Shown: piece after piece, positions 3,223-22,650 of the stretch | Layout: each line of letters starts with the position of its first letter | How positions within the stretch are numbered: position 1 is the first letter of the stretch | Origin: a virus | IMG/VR virus record: IMGVR_UViG_3300045919_000302 | Location: 85,292 to 149,291 of that record | Length of the DNA: 64,000 nt | Direction: 5' to 3' (one strand) | Made by a program: the position numbers and the translations under genes | The notes under the pieces: model-generated | The model's database searches: none | The model's input: the letters and a program-made list of their open reading frames with translations, nothing else | What the model was told of the DNA's origin: nothing

Positions 3223-4025
3223 CAGAGCACCTGATTGCCGTCGGCATCGTGGGCCGTGAGCTTCAGACTGAACACGCTCGCGTACCGACGGAGAGCCTGA
3301 AGGGCGAAGTCGATCCCCTCTGCCTCGAAGTCATTGGACCCGAGGAACTCCGCGCAGGCCAGGGCAATACACTCGGCGTTGCTCTGGATCTGGGGATTGA
3401 CCGATTTGATCTTGTCGATCGTCTGGCAGACCACCATGTAGGACTCGTGCTGAAACTGGTAGGTGATCGACTTGAGTTGATGTTCGACCGGCGTGCCTTT
3501 CACCGCGTCCTCGTTCGCCAGGGCCTGGTCCGGCTCGTTCGGCACCATCGAGGTCAGGTAACCCTTCACTTCTTTCTTGAGATCATCGGCCGTCAGGAGC
3601 TTGGCCTTCTCGACCCAGGTATCCACGTTCTCTTCGGTGACGACGCGGGTAAGGTCCTTGAGTTTGTCCCAGCCCACTTCCTTCACCTTACCGAGAAGCT
3701 GCTCGTTCTTCCCGAAGTGGAGCCAGATGTCGGCCAGGTACTTGGCCTTCGTATATTTGATGCCGAGTTCCCGGTTCGCGTACTCCTTGAAGGTCGCGTA
3801 ACCCCAACTCTCGTACCGATTCTGAACCCGTGCTGCGTGAAGGAGCATAGCCAACTCAAGGTAGTTCTCCTTGATATTGTTACAGAGAGACAGGATCCGA
3901 CGACGATGATCATCGCTGGAGATGTCCAGCTGCTTCTCCTTTTCCATTAGCACCACGGGCTGGGTGTCGGGAATAAAGTCTTCAACCAGTTCAACATCAA
4001 CCACTTCATTTTTTCTTTTCGTCAT
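3222..4025 (-). CDS. hypothetical protein with GYxTFxEY...ELG helical motif
   Basis: WGYATFKEYANRELGIKYTKAKYL; start at MTKRK (4025) gives ATGA overlap. Confidence 0.7.
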   Translation of the reverse strand: MTKRKNEVVDVELVEDFIPDTQPVVLMEKEKQLDISSDDHRRRILSLCNNIKENYLELAMLLHAARVQNRYESWGYATFKEYANRELGIKYTKAKYLADIWLHFGKNEQLLGKVKEVGWDKLKDLTRVVTEENVDTWVEKAKLLTADDLKKEVKGYLTSMVPNEPDQALANEDAVKGTPVEHQLKSITYQFQHESYMVVCQTIDKIKSVNPQIQSNAECIALACAEFLGSNDFEAEGIDFALQALRRYASVFSLKLTAHDADGNQVL

Positions 4026-4858
4026 ACCTTCCCCTTTTGGAAACACAGATTTCTTACCGGACAAGCCTTTGCTCGTGAGCAAGAGGCGGAATCGCAAACC
4101 TCTCTTGGCGGAACAATTTTGGTCCTCATTCCCTCGCGGGCCAGAGCCAGGGCTTCGAGCGCCTTTTCTATAACCGCAGGATCGTATTTCACCTCGAACA
4201 TCGCAAGCAGAGACTCATCCTTATCCATGTAAAGAATGATTCCCTCCTTAAGCCCGGTGAGCCACATGTAGAGCTGGGTTTGAAGGACGTGGGCTGGCTG
4301 CGGCCGACGCTTCATGTCCGCCACGAGCTTGAACTGCATGGCGTTGCAGGTCTTCAGCTCAAGGACTTTCTTTTTCTTCCCAATCCGGAGAATGCCGTCC
4401 ACGTGGGCAGTCACCCCGTGAAGTAGATCAGCGGGCTCGATCTCAATGTAAAAGAAGTCGGTTCCCTGGCACTGTCCAGTCGGGCACTCCAGCCCGCAAG
4501 TCTTTGGCCTGAGAGAATCCTTGTGAACTCGGTGACATCTCCGGCAGAGCCAGTGGCCCTCAAGCCAGCCCCACTGACCGAACCATTCGTTCTGAGCCAG
4601 GGTATGAAAGGCTTTGCCGATGTCGAAGATCCTGCGGAGTCGGGGCTCGATCTTCTCGACCTTACTGATCTGATGGATATGCCTGAGTACCTCCTCCCGT
4701 GGGCAAAGCTTGACGAGCCTTGAGACCCGGTAGGTCTGATCCGCCGTCGGGGGTGGTATGACCTCCTCCGAAGCAAGCTTCAGGTTCATCTCCTGGATGA
4801 GATCAAAAAATGGTTCGGGCTCTTCGAACGCCGCCCGTAGTGCATCTGCAAGAGCCAT
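4022..4858 (-). CDS. Cas4-like PD-(D/E)XK exonuclease
   Basis: N-terminal CPR, GxxxH, HVDG...ELKT, QxxxY, C-terminal C...C...CPVRNLC (four-Cys Fe-S pattern). Confidence 0.85.
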   Translation of the reverse strand: MALADALRAAFEEPEPFFDLIQEMNLKLASEEVIPPPTADQTYRVSRLVKLCPREEVLRHIHQISKVEKIEPRLRRIFDIGKAFHTLAQNEWFGQWGWLEGHWLCRRCHRVHKDSLRPKTCGLECPTGQCQGTDFFYIEIEPADLLHGVTAHVDGILRIGKKKKVLELKTCNAMQFKLVADMKRRPQPAHVLQTQLYMWLTGLKEGIILYMDKDESLLAMFEVKYDPAVIEKALEALALAREGMRTKIVPPREVCDSASCSRAKACPVRNLCFQKGKV

Positions 4859-4860
4859 AG

Positions 4861-5448
4861 TTATAGCAGCCGCAAGCGCTGCATCTCCTTACGCCATTTG
4901 TCTTTGTTTTCCATGAACAGCCCGGCCACCGTCACGTAGTAGTTGATCCGTTTGATGAGCCTGTCGGTTGGTGGCGCGGAATTGCCGCCAAGCTCCGTCC
5001 AAATTTTGATGAAGGCTTGCTTCACCTTCTTGGTCTTCAGTTCCTTGGCCGTCTCGACGATCTCCTCGTCCATCTTCTGGCAGTACTTCTTCATCTCGTC
5101 CAGACCTGGAACCGTAAGGCCGACGGCCTGGATCCTGCCGAACTCTCGATACGTCTTCAAGATCGCATCAATATGTGCCGGATCCGCGTGAATAAGGTCC
5201 AACAACTGGTCAATCCGGAGTGTAAGCTTTTCGTCATGTTTCCACTCCAGGCTGCCAGTCACGGCAATATCCAAACCATCCGGCCTCTTTATAATGAAGT
5301 ATTTGTCCATCAACTGAATTCGGATATCGTCACAGTCCCAATAGGTGAACCTCACCTCTGAGCACCGCTTCGAAAGAGCCCGATCACGCTGCCGCAACTT
5401 CTGGGCGGCATTGCGAATCAGCTGAGGAACATCTACCTCAACGGTCAC
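4861..5448 (-). CDS. hypothetical protein
   Basis: 195 aa ORF in operon. Confidence 0.7.
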   Translation of the reverse strand: MTVEVDVPQLIRNAAQKLRQRDRALSKRCSEVRFTYWDCDDIRIQLMDKYFIIKRPDGLDIAVTGSLEWKHDEKLTLRIDQLLDLIHADPAHIDAILKTYREFGRIQAVGLTVPGLDEMKKYCQKMDEEIVETAKELKTKKVKQAFIKIWTELGGNSAPPTDRLIKRINYYVTVAGLFMENKDKWRKEMQRLRLL

Positions 5449-5852
5449 AGCGTTCCCTTCATCTTGAGGAGTTCGACAACCTCAATCTTCATCTTCGATT
5501 CGCAATAGCCCCGGGCAAATTCGTAAGACTCGTCAATCTCCTTCTGAACCTCGGGAGTGACCTTCTTGCCGACGGGGAGGTGAATGCTGACGCCAACCTT
5601 CCCCATGTTGTAGTTCCCGAGCGATATCGTCGCCCCCATGTCCATCGAGATGTGGATCAAACCCTCATCCTCGATGGCCACTCTGGCGACCTCAGTCTGC
5701 TCGGACTTTAAGACCTTCTGGGTCGGGACCTTCTCGCCATCTATGTACTCGGTCTTGTCAATGGTCACTTCGGTGGTTGCCTTAGCTCCGGCCGACTTGA
5801 TCTCCTTGGGCTTGTTCGCGAGCAAGACTGTCAGATCGGTACTCTTCGTCAT
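5445..5852 (-). CDS. hypothetical protein
   Basis: 135 aa ORF with overlaps on both sides. Confidence 0.7.
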   Translation of the reverse strand: MTKSTDLTVLLANKPKEIKSAGAKATTEVTIDKTEYIDGEKVPTQKVLKSEQTEVARVAIEDEGLIHISMDMGATISLGNYNMGKVGVSIHLPVGKKVTPEVQKEIDESYEFARGYCESKMKIEVVELLKMKGTL

Positions 5853-18948: not shown

Positions 18949-19523
18949 TTTCCACCTCTGATGATTTCGATGATTTGCGATTCGTGAACCGGTGCGAAGT
19001 CCCAGACATCCACTCCGACGTTAATCCACTTATCTTTTGTCTTCCACTTCTCGTGGACGTGGCCGTGCAGAATCCAGCCTTCATCCTGAGGTCTAAACTC
19101 CTTGTATCTGACGTCGTAACCCTCAACTTCCACGAACGGCGGCATGTGATGCAAGAGGATAGGAACTCCGTCGATCTCGATCCGGGCTTCGAGCTGCACG
19201 GTCTTGAACACGGACAGATACAACTCCATCGCTTGGGCCATCTTGTTGGGCTTCGTTCGACAAGGATGGACCCAGTCGTGGTTGCCGGCGACCAGATGGA
19301 TCTCGCCATTCAGTCGCGGTCCAACCTCTGTGACCCAGTTCTTCCCGAGCGAGAAGTCGCCCAAGTACCAGACGAAGTCGCCTGGCTTCACCCGAGTGTT
19401 CCAGCGGTCAACCAGAATCGCATTCATCTCCTCTTTATCCAGAAATGGGCGATTGCAATACTTGATGACATTTTCGTGACCGAAAAGCTAATGATGGTCA
19501 GACGTGTAAAATCTGTTAACCAT
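18945..19523 (-). pseudogene. calcineurin-like metallophosphoesterase with in-frame TAG at codon 12 (pseudogene or recoded)
   Basis: MVNRFYTSDHH*LFGHENVIKYCNRPF...; downstream LGDF, GNHD, HMP, HGHVH, NVGVD intact. Confidence 0.75.
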
Positions 19524-22500
19524 CGAGCACCTCGCCTTCTACATGTCCGACATGCTTTTTGAGTTGGTCGTTGGTTTTCTCGGTTCCCCAGTCCTTCTGG
19601 AGATCATCAAGGCCGATGCCCTTCTCCATCCACGCCTGCTCTTCGGCGGTGAGCTTCTTGCCTTCAAGCACCTTACGGGCCAACTCAGCCTTCTTTTTAA
19701 GGATCCCGATGACTTTGGAGTCCCAACGATTGCCAGCAGCCTTGATCCAGTAGACGTTCACCATGTTCTTCTGACCGATACGGTGTGCTCGTGCAGTGGC
19801 CTGGGCTTCATCGGCAGTATTCCACGGCAGGTCGTTGAAGATCACCTTGTCCGCCCGGGTCAGGGTTGCTCCGACCGCGAGGGATTGACGGGTGGTGCAG
19901 AACACCCGCTTGTCGGTTCCTTCGCGCTGGAACTCGGCCTTGGCCGCTTCGCGGACTTCGTCAGAAAGCTGGCCGTGATGGAGCAGGGAAAGGTCGCCCA
20001 TGGCTTCGTGGATCTGTTTGGCAACTTCGACCGAGTCCGAGAATACGAGCATGCTTGAGTCGGAGGATTCGAGCATCTCCTTGATGAACTCGATCGTCGC
20101 TCCGGCCTTGTCGATGGCGATGTCGCTCTTCATCCGGGCGATGTCTTCGAAGTCGATCTTGCCGTCTTCCGGGATGTCGCGGCAGCCTTCGACTTCGAGT
20201 TCGATGATCGAAGTGAGCTTCTCCGGGAGATCCTTCAGGACTTGGGCCTTGGAGGCGGTCTTGTAGAACTCCTGGATCTTGTGCCAGGTGCCGCCGATGG
20301 TCGCCATCTTGAGCGCGGTCTTGGACTCGAAGAAGCCGGGGCGGATCAGCTCCACCTGGGTGAAGAGTTCGTCCTTCTTGTTCTTGATCGCGGTGCCCGA
20401 GAGGAGGATCTTGTGGGCGAAGAGTGAGGAGACCGAGTGGACGGATTTGGTGATCTTGGCCTTCGGGTTCTTGATCGAGTGACTATTGTGAACCAGTGCT
20501 CCGTTTACAGAGAACGAAGGGTGGCCAGACACTTTGAGATCGTAGTAAAAACCCTGCTCGTTTCCTGGGTAACCTCCAGATTCGTGAACCGTAACACCGT
20601 CCACCCTAATTCCTTTAACTTCAGATCTTTTTTCTTGTCCTGCTCTCTCCGAGACAAGTGCGACAAGCCGTCCACTTCTACGCACAGCCGGTCCGAGACC
20701 AGCGCAAGATCCACTTTGTAGTTCGTTGGATATCCCGGAAATCTCCCACCCAAAGACACCGCGTGATTCCATTTCCACGAACGACCGAGGCGTGACAACA
20801 ACAATCTCTCCGGTTTCGTCGGCCCGTGGCCGTTCCCGCCCCGAACTGTTGGCTTCCATCCTATTCGTTTCAGAGTCGCCGAGACTTTGGATCGCGTGGC
20901 TGCTGAATGCATGGGATTCTTCAGTCTCATGCGAATAGCCGAATCCGGCCTCGCCTTCCCGGTTAGCGAGTTGCTTATTTTTAAAGCTGTCTTCTTCGTG
21001 TAAACCTTTGCTCGAATAGCAGGTTGCCTCATTCTCCATTTCGCAGAGCAGGAGGTTCCGCAAAAACGCTGCTTTCTGTACTGGTTTGGCAGGAAACTCT
21101 TCGCGCAATAACTGCACGGCTTCTTCTTGGCTGACAAGGGTGTCTCCTTCTTTTAGGTTTTCAGCAAACACCCACCCACGACTTGTAAGGAAAGGATGAT
21201 GCGATGAACATGTGACCGTTTGTCCACCGTATCTTAATTCAGTGCGGCTGTCCAATATCTGCGTCCTCTTGGTTCCGAGAACAGTAGATGTACCGGCAGC
21301 CGAATAGACCTCATCACCGACTTTTATTTGATCAATCCGCACCGGCCCACTTGGGGTATCAATAAGGGTCTCAGGTCCAAAGCACTCGTCGATCACCATC
21401 ACGTCGAAACCGGCGGCCTGGATCGCGGGGAGGAACTTCTCGAAGCTCGCGAAGTTGACGCTGGCGATTTGAACCTGGGAGAGATCCGGCATCCCGTTCT
21501 TCTTGAGCGACTTCGGGGTCAGCTCAATGCAGCGGGTGAAGTAGCCCGGGAAGAACTTCTTGGCTTCCTGGATCCAGGTCCGGCGAACCACCTTGGGGCA
21601 GACCACCAGGATCCGCTTGTTGTTCATCGCGGCGTAGCAGAGGGAGATGAGGGTCTTACCGAGGCCCATCTCAGCGCCGATCAGGGCGTTGCCGTTGGCG
21701 ACATTCAGGAAGCGGACGAAGTCGTTCTGGAAGGGGAACGGGACGATCTCGGGATTGATCATCGCCATCAGCTCCGGGATCGGGGCTTCGGCGGCGGCCT
21801 TCTTCATGTCGCGCTCGACCTGGGCTTCTTCGATACCCTGGAAGAAAAACTTCCAGCTCGGGAGCAACTCGCGGGCCTTGGTGATCGCTTCGAGGGCGAG
21901 ATCGAGGTTGTTGGTCAGACGGGCCCAGTCGGAGACCCGGCACTCGACGATCCCGGAGAGCTGGCTCGTTTTGTTTGAGAAGAGGCCATTCAGAACGGTG
22001 GAGAACGAGAACCGGAACTCGAACATGTCGCCCACCTTGCGGCAGATGAAGGCGTTGTTGATCCGCTTCTGGTCGAGGAGGGAGAGAGCCTTCTCCAGAG
22101 TGAGTTCGGCCTCCGGGGTCTTCTCAAACACCGGCACCGGGTTCACGGTGAAGCCCAGGGCCTCTAACTCGGCCTTGTAGCCGGCGAAGTCGAATGAGTC
22201 GATGTTCCTGCCCGGAACGTAGTTACGATCGAGGCCCCGGTCCCACCAAAGGCCGAACTTCTGGTTGACCCGGATGTACCGACGGCGCACCAGGGTGGGG
22301 ATCGAGCCTTCGTGAGACATGAGAAGGGCCGCACCCCAGCGGGCGTCAAGCACCTGGAGGACTGGGGTGATCGTCGGGAGCTTGATCTCAACCTTGACTT
22401 CAACCCGGAAGCTCTGGGGGTAGTTCTGCTCGACCGCTTCGCGGCCTTCTTCGCCGAACTGGCCGAGCTGGGTCTTGAGGTACTTCTTGAGGACGTGGGC

Positions 22501-22650
22501 CATCTCGGTGGCATCGCCCCGGACACCCGGCCAGCTGATCCAGTCAGGTTGATTGAAGCCGACCTCGTTCCGCTCCTTGACTTCGTCGATTCCAAACAGG
22601 AAGTCGCCCATGTGGCAGAGAAGCTGAGCTTGAATCAAGAATTTTTCCAT
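19516..22650 (-). CDS. SNF2/SWI2-family (HARP-like) helicase containing an intein
   Basis: AEMGLGKT, VIDE/SH, LSGTAIKN, GATLTRA, QATARAHRIGQ. Confidence 0.92.
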   Translation of the reverse strand: MEKFLIQAQLLCHMGDFLFGIDEVKERNEVGFNQPDWISWPGVRGDATEMAHVLKKYLKTQLGQFGEEGREAVEQNYPQSFRVEVKVEIKLPTITPVLQVLDARWGAALLMSHEGSIPTLVRRRYIRVNQKFGLWWDRGLDRNYVPGRNIDSFDFAGYKAELEALGFTVNPVPVFEKTPEAELTLEKALSLLDQKRINNAFICRKVGDMFEFRFSFSTVLNGLFSNKTSQLSGIVECRVSDWARLTNNLDLALEAITKARELLPSWKFFFQGIEEAQVERDMKKAAAEAPIPELMAMINPEIVPFPFQNDFVRFLNVANGNALIGAEMGLGKTLISLCYAAMNNKRILVVCPKVVRRTWIQEAKKFFPGYFTRCIELTPKSLKKNGMPDLSQVQIASVNFASFEKFLPAIQAAGFDVMVIDECFGPETLIDTPSGPVRIDQIKVGDEVYSAAGTSTVLGTKRTQILDSRTELRYGGQTVTCSSHHPFLTSRGWVFAENLKEGDTLVSQEEAVQLLREEFPAKPVQKAAFLRNLLLCEMENEATCYSSKGLHEEDSFKNKQLANREGEAGFGYSHETEESHAFSSHAIQSLGDSETNRMEANSSGRERPRADETGEIVVVTPRSFVEMESRGVFGWEISGISNELQSGSCAGLGPAVRRSGRLVALVSERAGQEKRSEVKGIRVDGVTVHESGGYPGNEQGFYYDLKVSGHPSFSVNGALVHNSHSIKNPKAKITKSVHSVSSLFAHKILLSGTAIKNKKDELFTQVELIRPGFFESKTALKMATIGGTWHKIQEFYKTASKAQVLKDLPEKLTSIIELEVEGCRDIPEDGKIDFEDIARMKSDIAIDKAGATIEFIKEMLESSDSSMLVFSDSVEVAKQIHEAMGDLSLLHHGQLSDEVREAAKAEFQREGTDKRVFCTTRQSLAVGATLTRADKVIFNDLPWNTADEAQATARAHRIGQKNMVNVYWIKAAGNRWDSKVIGILKKKAELARKVLEGKKLTAEEQAWMEKGIGLDDLQKDWGTEKTNDQLKKHVGHVEGEVLDG
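20485..21384 (-). mobile_element. intein (300 aa) in Walker B (DE|SH), no in-frame endonuclease
   Basis: CFGPETLIDTPSG...HHPFLTSRGWVFAENLKEGD...YYDLKVSGHPSFSVNGALVHN followed by Ser. Confidence 0.92.
20505..21137 (-). CDS. Vsr/DUF559-type endonuclease in +1 frame inside the intein
   Basis: CxxC...CxxxC, basic middle region, YKVDLAL...CVEVDGLSH...DKKKDLKLKELGWTVLRFTN; GAAGGAG SD 6 nt before TTG. Confidence 0.85.
   Translation of the reverse strand: MSAKKKPCSYCAKSFLPNQYRKQRFCGTSCSAKWRMRQPAIRAKVYTKKTALKISNSLTGKARPDSAIRMRLKNPMHSAATRSKVSATLKRIGWKPTVRGGNGHGPTKPERLLLSRLGRSWKWNHAVSLGGRFPGYPTNYKVDLALVSDRLCVEVDGLSHLSRREQDKKKDLKLKELGWTVLRFTNLEVTQETSRVFTTISKCLATLRSL

Follow-up and report, generated by a model that had tools for sequence, protein, structure and literature searches.

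A mini-intein of a viral SNF2-type helicase with a predicted Vsr-like homing endonuclease gene in its +1 frame

The locus presented here lies in a stretch of viral DNA of 64,000 nucleotides (nt), referred to as the window, which covers positions 85,292 to 149,291 of IMG/VR record IMGVR_UViG_3300045919_000302, a record of 149,291 bases with terminal repeats. According to the list of open reading frames (ORFs), an SNF2-type host ORF of 1044 amino acids (aa), intein included, extends over positions 19516-22650 of the minus strand. A second minus-strand ORF of 210 aa, at 20505-21137, lies within the intein in frame +1 relative to the SNF2 frame (the host frame) and starts with TTG; one copy of this nuclease gene was found in the record. 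We read the two as a composite element, probably a class-1 mini-intein overprinted with a complete homing endonuclease gene. Features of the locus are listed below with the evidence for each, in which A1 is an alignment of 36 nuclease-family members, window included, A2 is an alignment of 37 intein relatives, and confidence of structure models is given as pLDDT, the score predicted for the local distance difference test.

19516-22650, minus strand: SNF2-family helicase precursor, intein included (ORF list; Pfam SNF2-rel_dom, ResIII and Helicase_C; uninterrupted homologues L094 and L095)
21385-22650, minus strand: N-extein, with last residues ..VMVIDE corresponding to Walker B / motif II (junction sequence)
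20485-21384, minus strand: predicted intein of 300 aa, with C1, block B His63, terminal HN and Ser+1 (Pfam Hint families; invariant columns; AlphaFold and Foldseek)
21100-21384, minus strand: N-terminal splicing domain of the intein, aa 1-95, host frame only (pLDDT 96-98; third codon position of the host frame most variable)
20623-21099, minus strand: host-frame linker, intein aa 96-254, where the nuclease gene is read through (stop-free, unconserved as protein; low pLDDT; codon-position diversity; 0 stops vs 8.4 expected)
20485-20622, minus strand: C-terminal splicing domain of the intein, aa 255-300, blocks F/G, ending in ..GHPSFSVNGALVHN (pLDDT 96-97, four strands; host-frame constraint from aa ~271)
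21144-21149, minus strand: putative Shine-Dalgarno (SD) sequence AAGGAG, 6 nt ahead of TTG, formed by the intein K-E-G-D codons (sequence; recurrence in the clade)
21135-21137, minus strand: putative TTG start, across the intein Leu-Val codons CTT GTC (sequence; comparison within the clade)
20505-21137, minus strand: predicted homing-endonuclease gene, +1 frame, 210 aa, TTG start and TAA stop (ORF; DUF559; 68 homologues; pLDDT 92.3; own third codon position most variable over residues 1-190)
21048-21116, minus strand: predicted four-Cys zinc finger, FCS-like, C8/C11/C26/C30 (A1 columns; PDB profile matches; zf-FCS match of P0094)
20526-20723, minus strand: Vsr-like / EDxHD core, nuclease residues 139-204, with D143, E154, D156, H160, D167 and K170 (Pfam; A1 columns; PDB profiles; Foldseek)
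20581-20613, minus strand: doubly constrained stretch, GWxVLRFxN of the nuclease over the first strand of the intein C-domain (codon-position diversity; strands E258-267 in the intein model and E180-185 in the nuclease model)
20505-20507, minus strand: nuclease stop TAA, formed by the block-G Val-Asn codons GTA AAC, 8 codons ahead of the intein end (sequence)

Exteins of the host protein match the Pfam families SNF2-rel_dom, ResIII and Helicase_C. The insert between them (residues 423-722) matches Hint_2, PT-HINT and Intein_splicing, with Hint matches confined to both ends of the 300 aa and no Pfam family match in the in-frame middle. Cys1 follows directly after ..VMVIDE, and the last intein residues ..LVHN are followed by SH, which places the junction at DE|SH. 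In A2, C1, H63 and N300 are invariant and H299 is nearly so; residue +1 is Ser in the window and Cys or Ser in the relatives. The two closest SNF2 relatives in IMG/VR (L094 and L095) are without an intein and read AGFDTLIIDE-SH.. and SGFDTLIIDE-SH.. at the corresponding position, the empty site of L094-type alleles in DNA being ..ATCGATGAG|AGCCAC... The locus thus combines the features of a class-1 intein, i.e. N-terminal Cys, block B His, C-terminal His-Asn followed by Ser, a Hint fold and insert-free homologues. From these we infer a class-1 mini-intein located directly 3' of the Walker B / motif II DE codons of an SNF2 helicase, the precursor of which would undergo splicing.

The product of the +1 ORF matches Pfam DUF559 with E=4.2e-14 and 52.8 bits (cut-off 20.6). 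Its N-terminal region is comprised of a four-Cys, FCS-like finger and helices, with no NUMOD or helix-turn-helix (HTH) module of the kind found in I-Bth0305I. Among the finger residues, C8, C11 and C30 are invariant in A1 and C26 is nearly invariant. The FCS fingers 2w0t and 2l8e were obtained as PDB profile matches of this N-terminus, and one relative, P0094, matches Pfam zf-FCS (E=1.9e-7). In the core, D143, E154, H160 and D167 are invariant in A1, while D156 and K170 are conserved in at least 90% of sequences. The catalytic residues E154, D156, H160 and D167 compose the EDxHD motif as given in PMC3239194, three of them being invariant and one conserved at that level. The window ORF is complete and retains every conserved zinc-finger and catalytic residue. 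Judged by these similarities, the gene product would begin with an FCS-like zinc finger, continue with a helical linker and end in an EDxHD nuclease that is Vsr-like and of the I-Bth0305I type, with predicted cleavage activity.

Structure predictions are consistent with this division of the locus. The AlphaFold model of the intein, with 37 aligned relatives as input, has pLDDT >95 at aa 1-95 and 255-300, a helix of moderate confidence at aa 103-122 (pLDDT about 85), and pLDDT <50 at aa 123-246 save for three isolated residues. Foldseek with the ordered parts gave probability 1.0 to the gp41-1, DnaB and RecA inteins, with gp41-1 ranked first; gp41-1 is also the best solved relative in the profile match of the splicing domain (PDB 6qaz, E=9e-18). 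In the model, host-frame read-through of the nuclease gene is a predicted disordered loop of ~125-160 residues, at the place in the Hint fold where endonucleases are usually inserted. The model of the +1 product has a mean pLDDT of 92.3. Foldseek matches of its nuclease core are the DUF559 protein 3hrl (template modelling (TM) score 0.77), the I-Bth0305I catalytic domain 3r3p (TM 0.76), and the Vsr structures 1cw0 and 1vsr. PDB profile matches of the nuclease include two of these structures, 3hrl with E=1.4e-13 and 3r3p with E=5.4e-5. An initial annotation of this locus, made from the sequence, had placed the intein and the +1 ORF at the coordinates and in the frames given here, with the junction at DE|SH, and the ORF list, the junction sequence and the Pfam matches agree with it. 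Its two further proposals, that the in-frame middle of the intein has no recognizable motif and that the +1 ORF codes for a DUF559/Vsr nuclease, are likewise confirmed: the middle is without a family match and predicted to be disordered, and the ORF has a DUF559 score above the cut-off and Vsr-like fold matches.

We have also addressed the question of selection acting on the two overlapping frames. Synonymous codons were shuffled inside each nuclease ORF, leaving the protein and the codon set unchanged, with 500 permutations for the window. In the window, the host frame over the nuclease ORF has 0 stops against a mean of 8.4 expected, and zero was never reached in the 500 permutations, while the third frame has 12 stops against 11.2 expected. 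The same holds across nested loci, where 3-16 host-frame stops are expected per locus and 0 observed, the third frame being as expected. Two free-standing nuclease genes used as controls, L001 and L002, have 7 and 4 host-frame stops.

Nucleotide diversity at codon positions, computed over 50 inteins, indicates which of the two proteins is constrained along the element. The host-frame third position is the most variable at intein aa 1-90, the host-frame first position (which is the nuclease third) at aa 91-270, and the host-frame third position again at aa 271-300. Nuclease residues 1-190 are accordingly under a constraint of their own, and the last ~20 nuclease codons follow the constraint of the intein. 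Diversity is low at all three codon positions in the bin 261-270 (0.47/0.29/0.22). Both reading frames are kept open by selection, and constraint at the protein level rests on the nuclease frame in the middle and on the intein frame at both ends. True double constraint is limited to about 10-15 codons (intein aa ~258-270). The expectation of the initial annotation that homologues would keep both frames open under purifying selection is therefore supported by the permutations and by the switch in codon phase. Its view that both frames are constrained in the C-terminal overlap holds for these ~10-15 codons and fails for the last ~20 codons of the nuclease, which track the intein only.

Since the host frame remains open, its middle part might have a function of its own, for example as a disordered regulatory linker tuning splicing, beyond tolerated read-through. 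The helix at aa 103-122 would fit such a role, as would four nearly invariant host-frame columns of A2 in this region, L108, L112, L222 and Q223. These columns, however, coincide exactly with RFCGTSCSAKW and YKVD, the strongest motifs of the nuclease, so that mid-intein conservation in the host frame is a by-product. The variability of the host-frame first codon position over aa 91-270, the low pLDDT of aa 123-246 and the absence of a Pfam match also speak against a functional linker, which we consider very unlikely.

Signals for a separate start of the nuclease gene are written in conserved intein codons. The SD at 21149-21144 precedes the TTG at 21137-21135 by 6 nt, just as first annotated, and GGAG-N6-TTG is also present in L005, L006, L008, L009, L011, L012, L014, L022 and L024. 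The intein residues G-D-x-L-[V/A] are written GGA GAY NNN CTT GNN in the window and ten close relatives, with GGA as the Gly codon in 10 and CTT as the Leu codon in all of these 11 sequences. Other clades have ATG starts, many with an SD, some of them placed 44-55 codons further upstream over the intein N-domain. No significant hairpin pairing the SD was indicated by RNA folding around SD/TTG (z-score -0.9). Taken together, the conserved SD and TTG point to independent translation of the nuclease.

As both frames are on one mRNA, ribosomes could in principle shift to the +1 frame in a programmed manner when nearing the end of the intein N-domain, and the nuclease would then be produced as a fusion with the N-extein and that domain. 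A fusion ORF of this kind does exist in one locus, L252, described below. In the window and in most of its clade, though, the nuclease frame is closed by a stop 5-13 codons upstream of the first zinc-finger Cys, leaving a very short window for the shift. Furthermore, an ATG, GTG or TTG start precedes the zinc finger in every locus, in many cases with an SD, and fusion would abort the helicase. A frameshift origin of the nuclease is for these reasons highly improbable.

To place the window copy among its relatives, a census was made of the best-scoring loci of each scan, counting distinct loci with a full-length nuclease relative. Homologues of the +1 protein number 68, with lengths of 136-309 aa, and a profile scan of IMG/VR gave 378 relatives. 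A scan of viral contigs with the nuclease as a single sequence gave no matches, so an alignment-based scan was required. Homologues of the host-frame intein were found in other long helicase ORFs, and in each one retrieved the nuclease is in the +1 frame. In a tblastn comparison of L005-L009, which have the nuclease in the intein +1 frame, nuclease identities were 62/60/47/51% as opposed to host-frame identities of 49/44/36/36%. In the first set, the host frame is stop-free across the nuclease gene in 75 out of 77 distinct loci, within ORFs of 450-2200 aa, and the third frame has 2-28 stops. The intein profile was matched by all 75 open-frame loci, end to end in 74 of them.

Further nested loci include 46 viral and 28 bacterial or archaeal ones, the latter from species-representative genomes, and 3 more hosts were found by protein identity. 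The second viral scan and the genome scan also gave three free-standing loci. In total, 152 out of 157 loci are nested in frame +1 and 5 are free-standing, and the split-intein (fractured) form was found in none of the 157. The bacterial loci L198, L212 and L213, with a closed frame, are without splicing domains. The nested layout persists down to about 35% nuclease identity, and in most related loci the nuclease stop is 4 or 8 codons before the intein end. Because of the lack of split forms, the deep conservation and the fixed position of the stop codon, the nested layout looks stable rather than transitional. The suggestion that the element could be an intermediate toward split inteins, put forward in the initial annotation, did not find support in these counts.

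Contigs assigned by binning to a very wide range of bacteria and to one archaeon carry the nested copies L172-L224 (genome_contigs). The bins include Deltaproteobacteria, Patescibacteria, Nitrospira, Dehalococcoidia, Planctomycetota, Longilinea arvoryzae and Woesearchaeota, and the copies probably represent prophages or binned phage contigs. In another locus, L252 (588-2893, protein P0221), a one-base shift makes the nuclease continuous with the N-extein and the N-domain of the intein in an ORF of 496 aa (ResIII + Hint + DUF559), and the intein C-domain and C-extein are still in the usual frame. L252 is a singleton contig, and its one-base shift could be a sequencing error, a pseudogene or mutation, or a fused variant.

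The out-of-frame arrangement would be an artefact if two compensating frameshift errors of assembly or sequencing masked an endonuclease domain of the ordinary, in-frame kind. The source of the window is a metagenome assembly, which was compared with other data at the level of assembled Logan contigs, and L252 shows the intein N-domain fused with the nuclease by a single base. Nevertheless, the same +1 arrangement is found in 152 independent and divergent loci, and the nuclease stop is inside block G, 4 or 8 codons ahead of the intein end, so that no in-frame layout could hold both. A search for longer proteins with the nuclease in frame, in itself weak evidence, gave none, and the sole long form among the 150 best of 2102 representative clusters is the frameshifted singleton P0221 (496 aa). 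In addition, contig pieces from two other wetland studies are identical to part of the stretch, without indels. The pair of frameshift errors that would have undermined the first reading was therefore not seen over the part covered by these pieces, and we regard such an artefact as hardly credible.

Assessing the host genes revealed the intein-nuclease unit in SNF2, ResIII/DEAD, ERCC3-like and RecD-like helicases and in a terminase large subunit. In every case the unit lies either at the acidic residues of Walker B or immediately behind them, with a few alternative insertion points (DE|, DESH| and DEAH|). In the terminase large subunit (L091:1001-3226), the intein and its +1 nuclease follow Walker B ..VDE. 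In helicases of the RecD/AAA_30 type (L092:1001-4369 and L093:1001-3070) they follow ..IDE or ..VDE, and the L092 protein contains an additional match to a LAGLIDADG-type intein. Across pairs, identity of the splicing domains varies together with that of the nuclease (r=0.59), as expected if the two travel together.

Combining these results, we consider the locus to be a composite selfish element of a phage genome, in which a class-1 mini-intein in an SNF2 helicase carries a complete, +1-overprinted EDxHD homing-endonuclease gene that is internally started and homing; we assign this reading a probability of roughly 85%. The open frames, the codon-phase switch and the SD with TTG support the initial description of a complete intein with a separate nuclease gene in the +1 frame. 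In the proposed mechanism, ribosomes would initiate at the internal SD and TTG on the helicase mRNA and produce the 210-aa nuclease, and this would cut intein-less alleles near the DE|SH codons during co-infection, whereupon repair would copy the intein in. The precursor helicase would splice normally, because the loop is predicted to leave the Hint fold undisturbed. Uncoupling of the nuclease dose from the host protein is a plausible consequence.

Several observations weigh against this reading. Expression, splicing, cleavage and homing of the element are all predicted from sequence, and activity of the window copy is inseparable from selection at the level of the family. Foldseek E-values of the nuclease core are modest (5e-3 to 4e-2). 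No sigma-70-like promoter was found upstream of the nuclease ORF inside the gene, the scan giving a single weak match downstream of the nuclease start, and nuclease expression must therefore rely on the helicase mRNA, where internal initiation could be disturbed by ribosomes elongating in the host frame. As a start codon, TTG is weak. Moreover, the intein residues G-D-x-L-V are conserved and partly dictate the SD and TTG, whose conservation therefore does not count as fully independent evidence. Finally, in L044 (3001-3564) the nuclease has one in-frame stop and the host frame is intact over an 809-aa ORF, which likely exemplifies a nuclease decaying within an intein that has stayed open. The best-supported route to the nuclease would still be internal initiation on the helicase mRNA.

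Some of these points would also fit a nuclease ORF that is silent or decaying in the window copy, i.e. a mini-intein with a junk linker that is inherited only vertically. Decay is expected in a homing cycle, and both the broken nuclease of L044 and the weak TTG start are in line with it. The window ORF, on the other hand, is complete in its conserved residues, as described above, and has the clade-conserved SD-N6-TTG, and purifying selection on the nuclease frame is family-wide. The closest SNF2 relatives are without the intein, fitting recent gain or loss. We find a relic of this kind unlikely, and prefer the composite element with an intact nuclease gene.

Intein endonucleases outside the host frame have been described before, contrary to the impression of the initial annotation that no such example was known. 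Out-of-frame and antisense endonuclease genes reportedly go back to the non-canonical inteins of Gorbalenya 1998 (Nucleic Acids Res 26:1741), and further cases are actinophage inteins with antisense LAGLIDADG, antisense VSR-like and frame-3 endonuclease VII-like genes (Gosselin, Arsenault and Gogarten 2025, bioRxiv 10.1101/2025.01.02.630785). For dnaX inteins of cyanobacteria, a +2 LAGLIDADG ORF was reported that has an SD, with selection that depends on the frame (Phillips, DeSimone and Gogarten 2026, bioRxiv 10.64898/2026.09.14.751524). According to Gosselin et al. 2025 (bioRxiv 10.1101/2025.01.02.630785), VSR-like nucleases are otherwise known only with split inteins. The authors of the work on non-canonical inteins propose that a free-standing nuclease gene invaded a mini-intein (bioRxiv 10.1101/2025.01.02.630785; 10.64898/2026.09.14.751524).

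The element of the window resembles non-canonical inteins in being a contiguous intein with a host frame open over a nuclease in another frame, a middle predicted to be disordered, selection that differs with the frame, and an SD ahead of the hidden ORF. The characteristics of that class are found here, namely a host frame open beyond chance, a hidden ORF under purifying selection, a middle predicted to be unstructured and putative start signals of its own. Differences from reported cases are that the nuclease is VSR-like, on the same strand and in frame +1, that its 3' end runs through the C-terminal splicing blocks, and that helicases and terminases are the hosts, at their Walker B sites. 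In full-text literature searches, no report was found in which a contiguous intein contains a Vsr-like/DUF559 gene on the same strand. Since the layout as such has been published before, the gain lies in breadth and detail, not in principle.

In canonical inteins, the LAGLIDADG or HNH nuclease belongs to the intein polypeptide as one of its domains and is produced 1:1 with the host protein. Nuclease DNA of the window is located at the same insertion point of the Hint fold and would follow the same homing logic, but the nuclease would be made as a polypeptide of its own, with its own start codon. The group I intron-encoded I-Bth0305I, a member of the EDxHD family with NUMOD repeats (Taylor et al. 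2011, PMC3239194; PDB 3r3p), has in common with the nuclease described here the Vsr-like catalytic fold, the conserved E, D, H and D, and a DNA-binding N-region followed by the C-terminal nuclease. Unlike I-Bth0305I, the window nuclease contains a zinc finger of the FCS-like kind, its gene overprints an intein, and its cleavage is predicted from sequence. Hidden HNH insertions of the ShiLan type in phage methylase genes (Arsenault et al. 2025, PMC11855218) are also out-of-frame endonuclease genes within a host ORF that is open on read-through. They are without a detectable splicing domain, whereas a complete Hint domain surrounds the nuclease gene here.

Fractured genes are split inteins with a free-standing Vsr-like or GIY-YIG gene between the halves, gp41-1 (PDB 6qaz) being among them (Dassa et al. 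2009, PMC2677866), and the 3' end of their nuclease gene overlaps the coding region of the intein C-part by 6-69 bp (PMC2677866). The window shares with them a phage DNA-metabolism gene, a mini-intein, and a Vsr-like gene with a putative start of its own and a 3' overlap with the intein C-part. In contrast to fractured genes, the intein and host gene are here one uninterrupted 1044-aa ORF, without a stop after the N-part or a new start before the C-part, and the N-terminal DNA-binding module of the nuclease is a four-Cys finger, not NUMOD/HTH. Some link between the two layouts is favoured by gp41-1 as the nearest solved splicing domain and by the nuclease 3' end lying over the intein C-part in both.

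Free-standing nuclease genes of the family are located in phage intergenic settings at L002:3962-4801 (also L003 and L027) and L001:1935-2684. The -1 frame of L002 matches positions 68-311 out of 317 of the intein profile with E=1e-56 and contains six stops, with a decayed block F/G included in the match, and the -1 frame of L001 matches positions 74-292. Intein similarity in the -1 frame of free-standing copies is mostly a by-product of nuclease conservation, and its ends are the informative part. These matches suggest that free-standing nuclease genes may descend from intein-nested ones.

In a wider and more tentative view, the +1-overprinted zinc-finger/EDxHD nuclease and the mini-intein might be one ancient and successful element specialized for the Walker B DE codons of P-loop NTPases. 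Overprinting would then be stable and adaptive, and free-standing copies such as L002 would be escapees with a decayed intein image in the -1 frame. Split inteins of the gp41-1 type could have been derived from it by a single nonsense or frameshift event.

Regardless of its origin, the family is a large natural data set of two proteins sharing DNA and of a nuclease gene and a mini-intein becoming one mobile unit. It also bears on movement of this unit between unrelated genes with only the Walker B motif in common. For engineering, it offers compact inteins predicted to tolerate a long disordered loop, and Vsr-like nucleases with predicted zinc-finger targeting modules.

Gene callers mishandle such loci, giving either one long helicase with an "unknown" insert or a called nuclease with the host gene cut into two. 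As a result, mis-annotation affects homing endonucleases and intact genes of helicases or terminases in the hundreds. As an illustration, in L004 the gene caller gave the nuclease (3884-4720) and a separate "Helicase_C" gene (4783-5724), and missed an 804-aa stop-free host-frame stretch (3310-5721) that extends across both.

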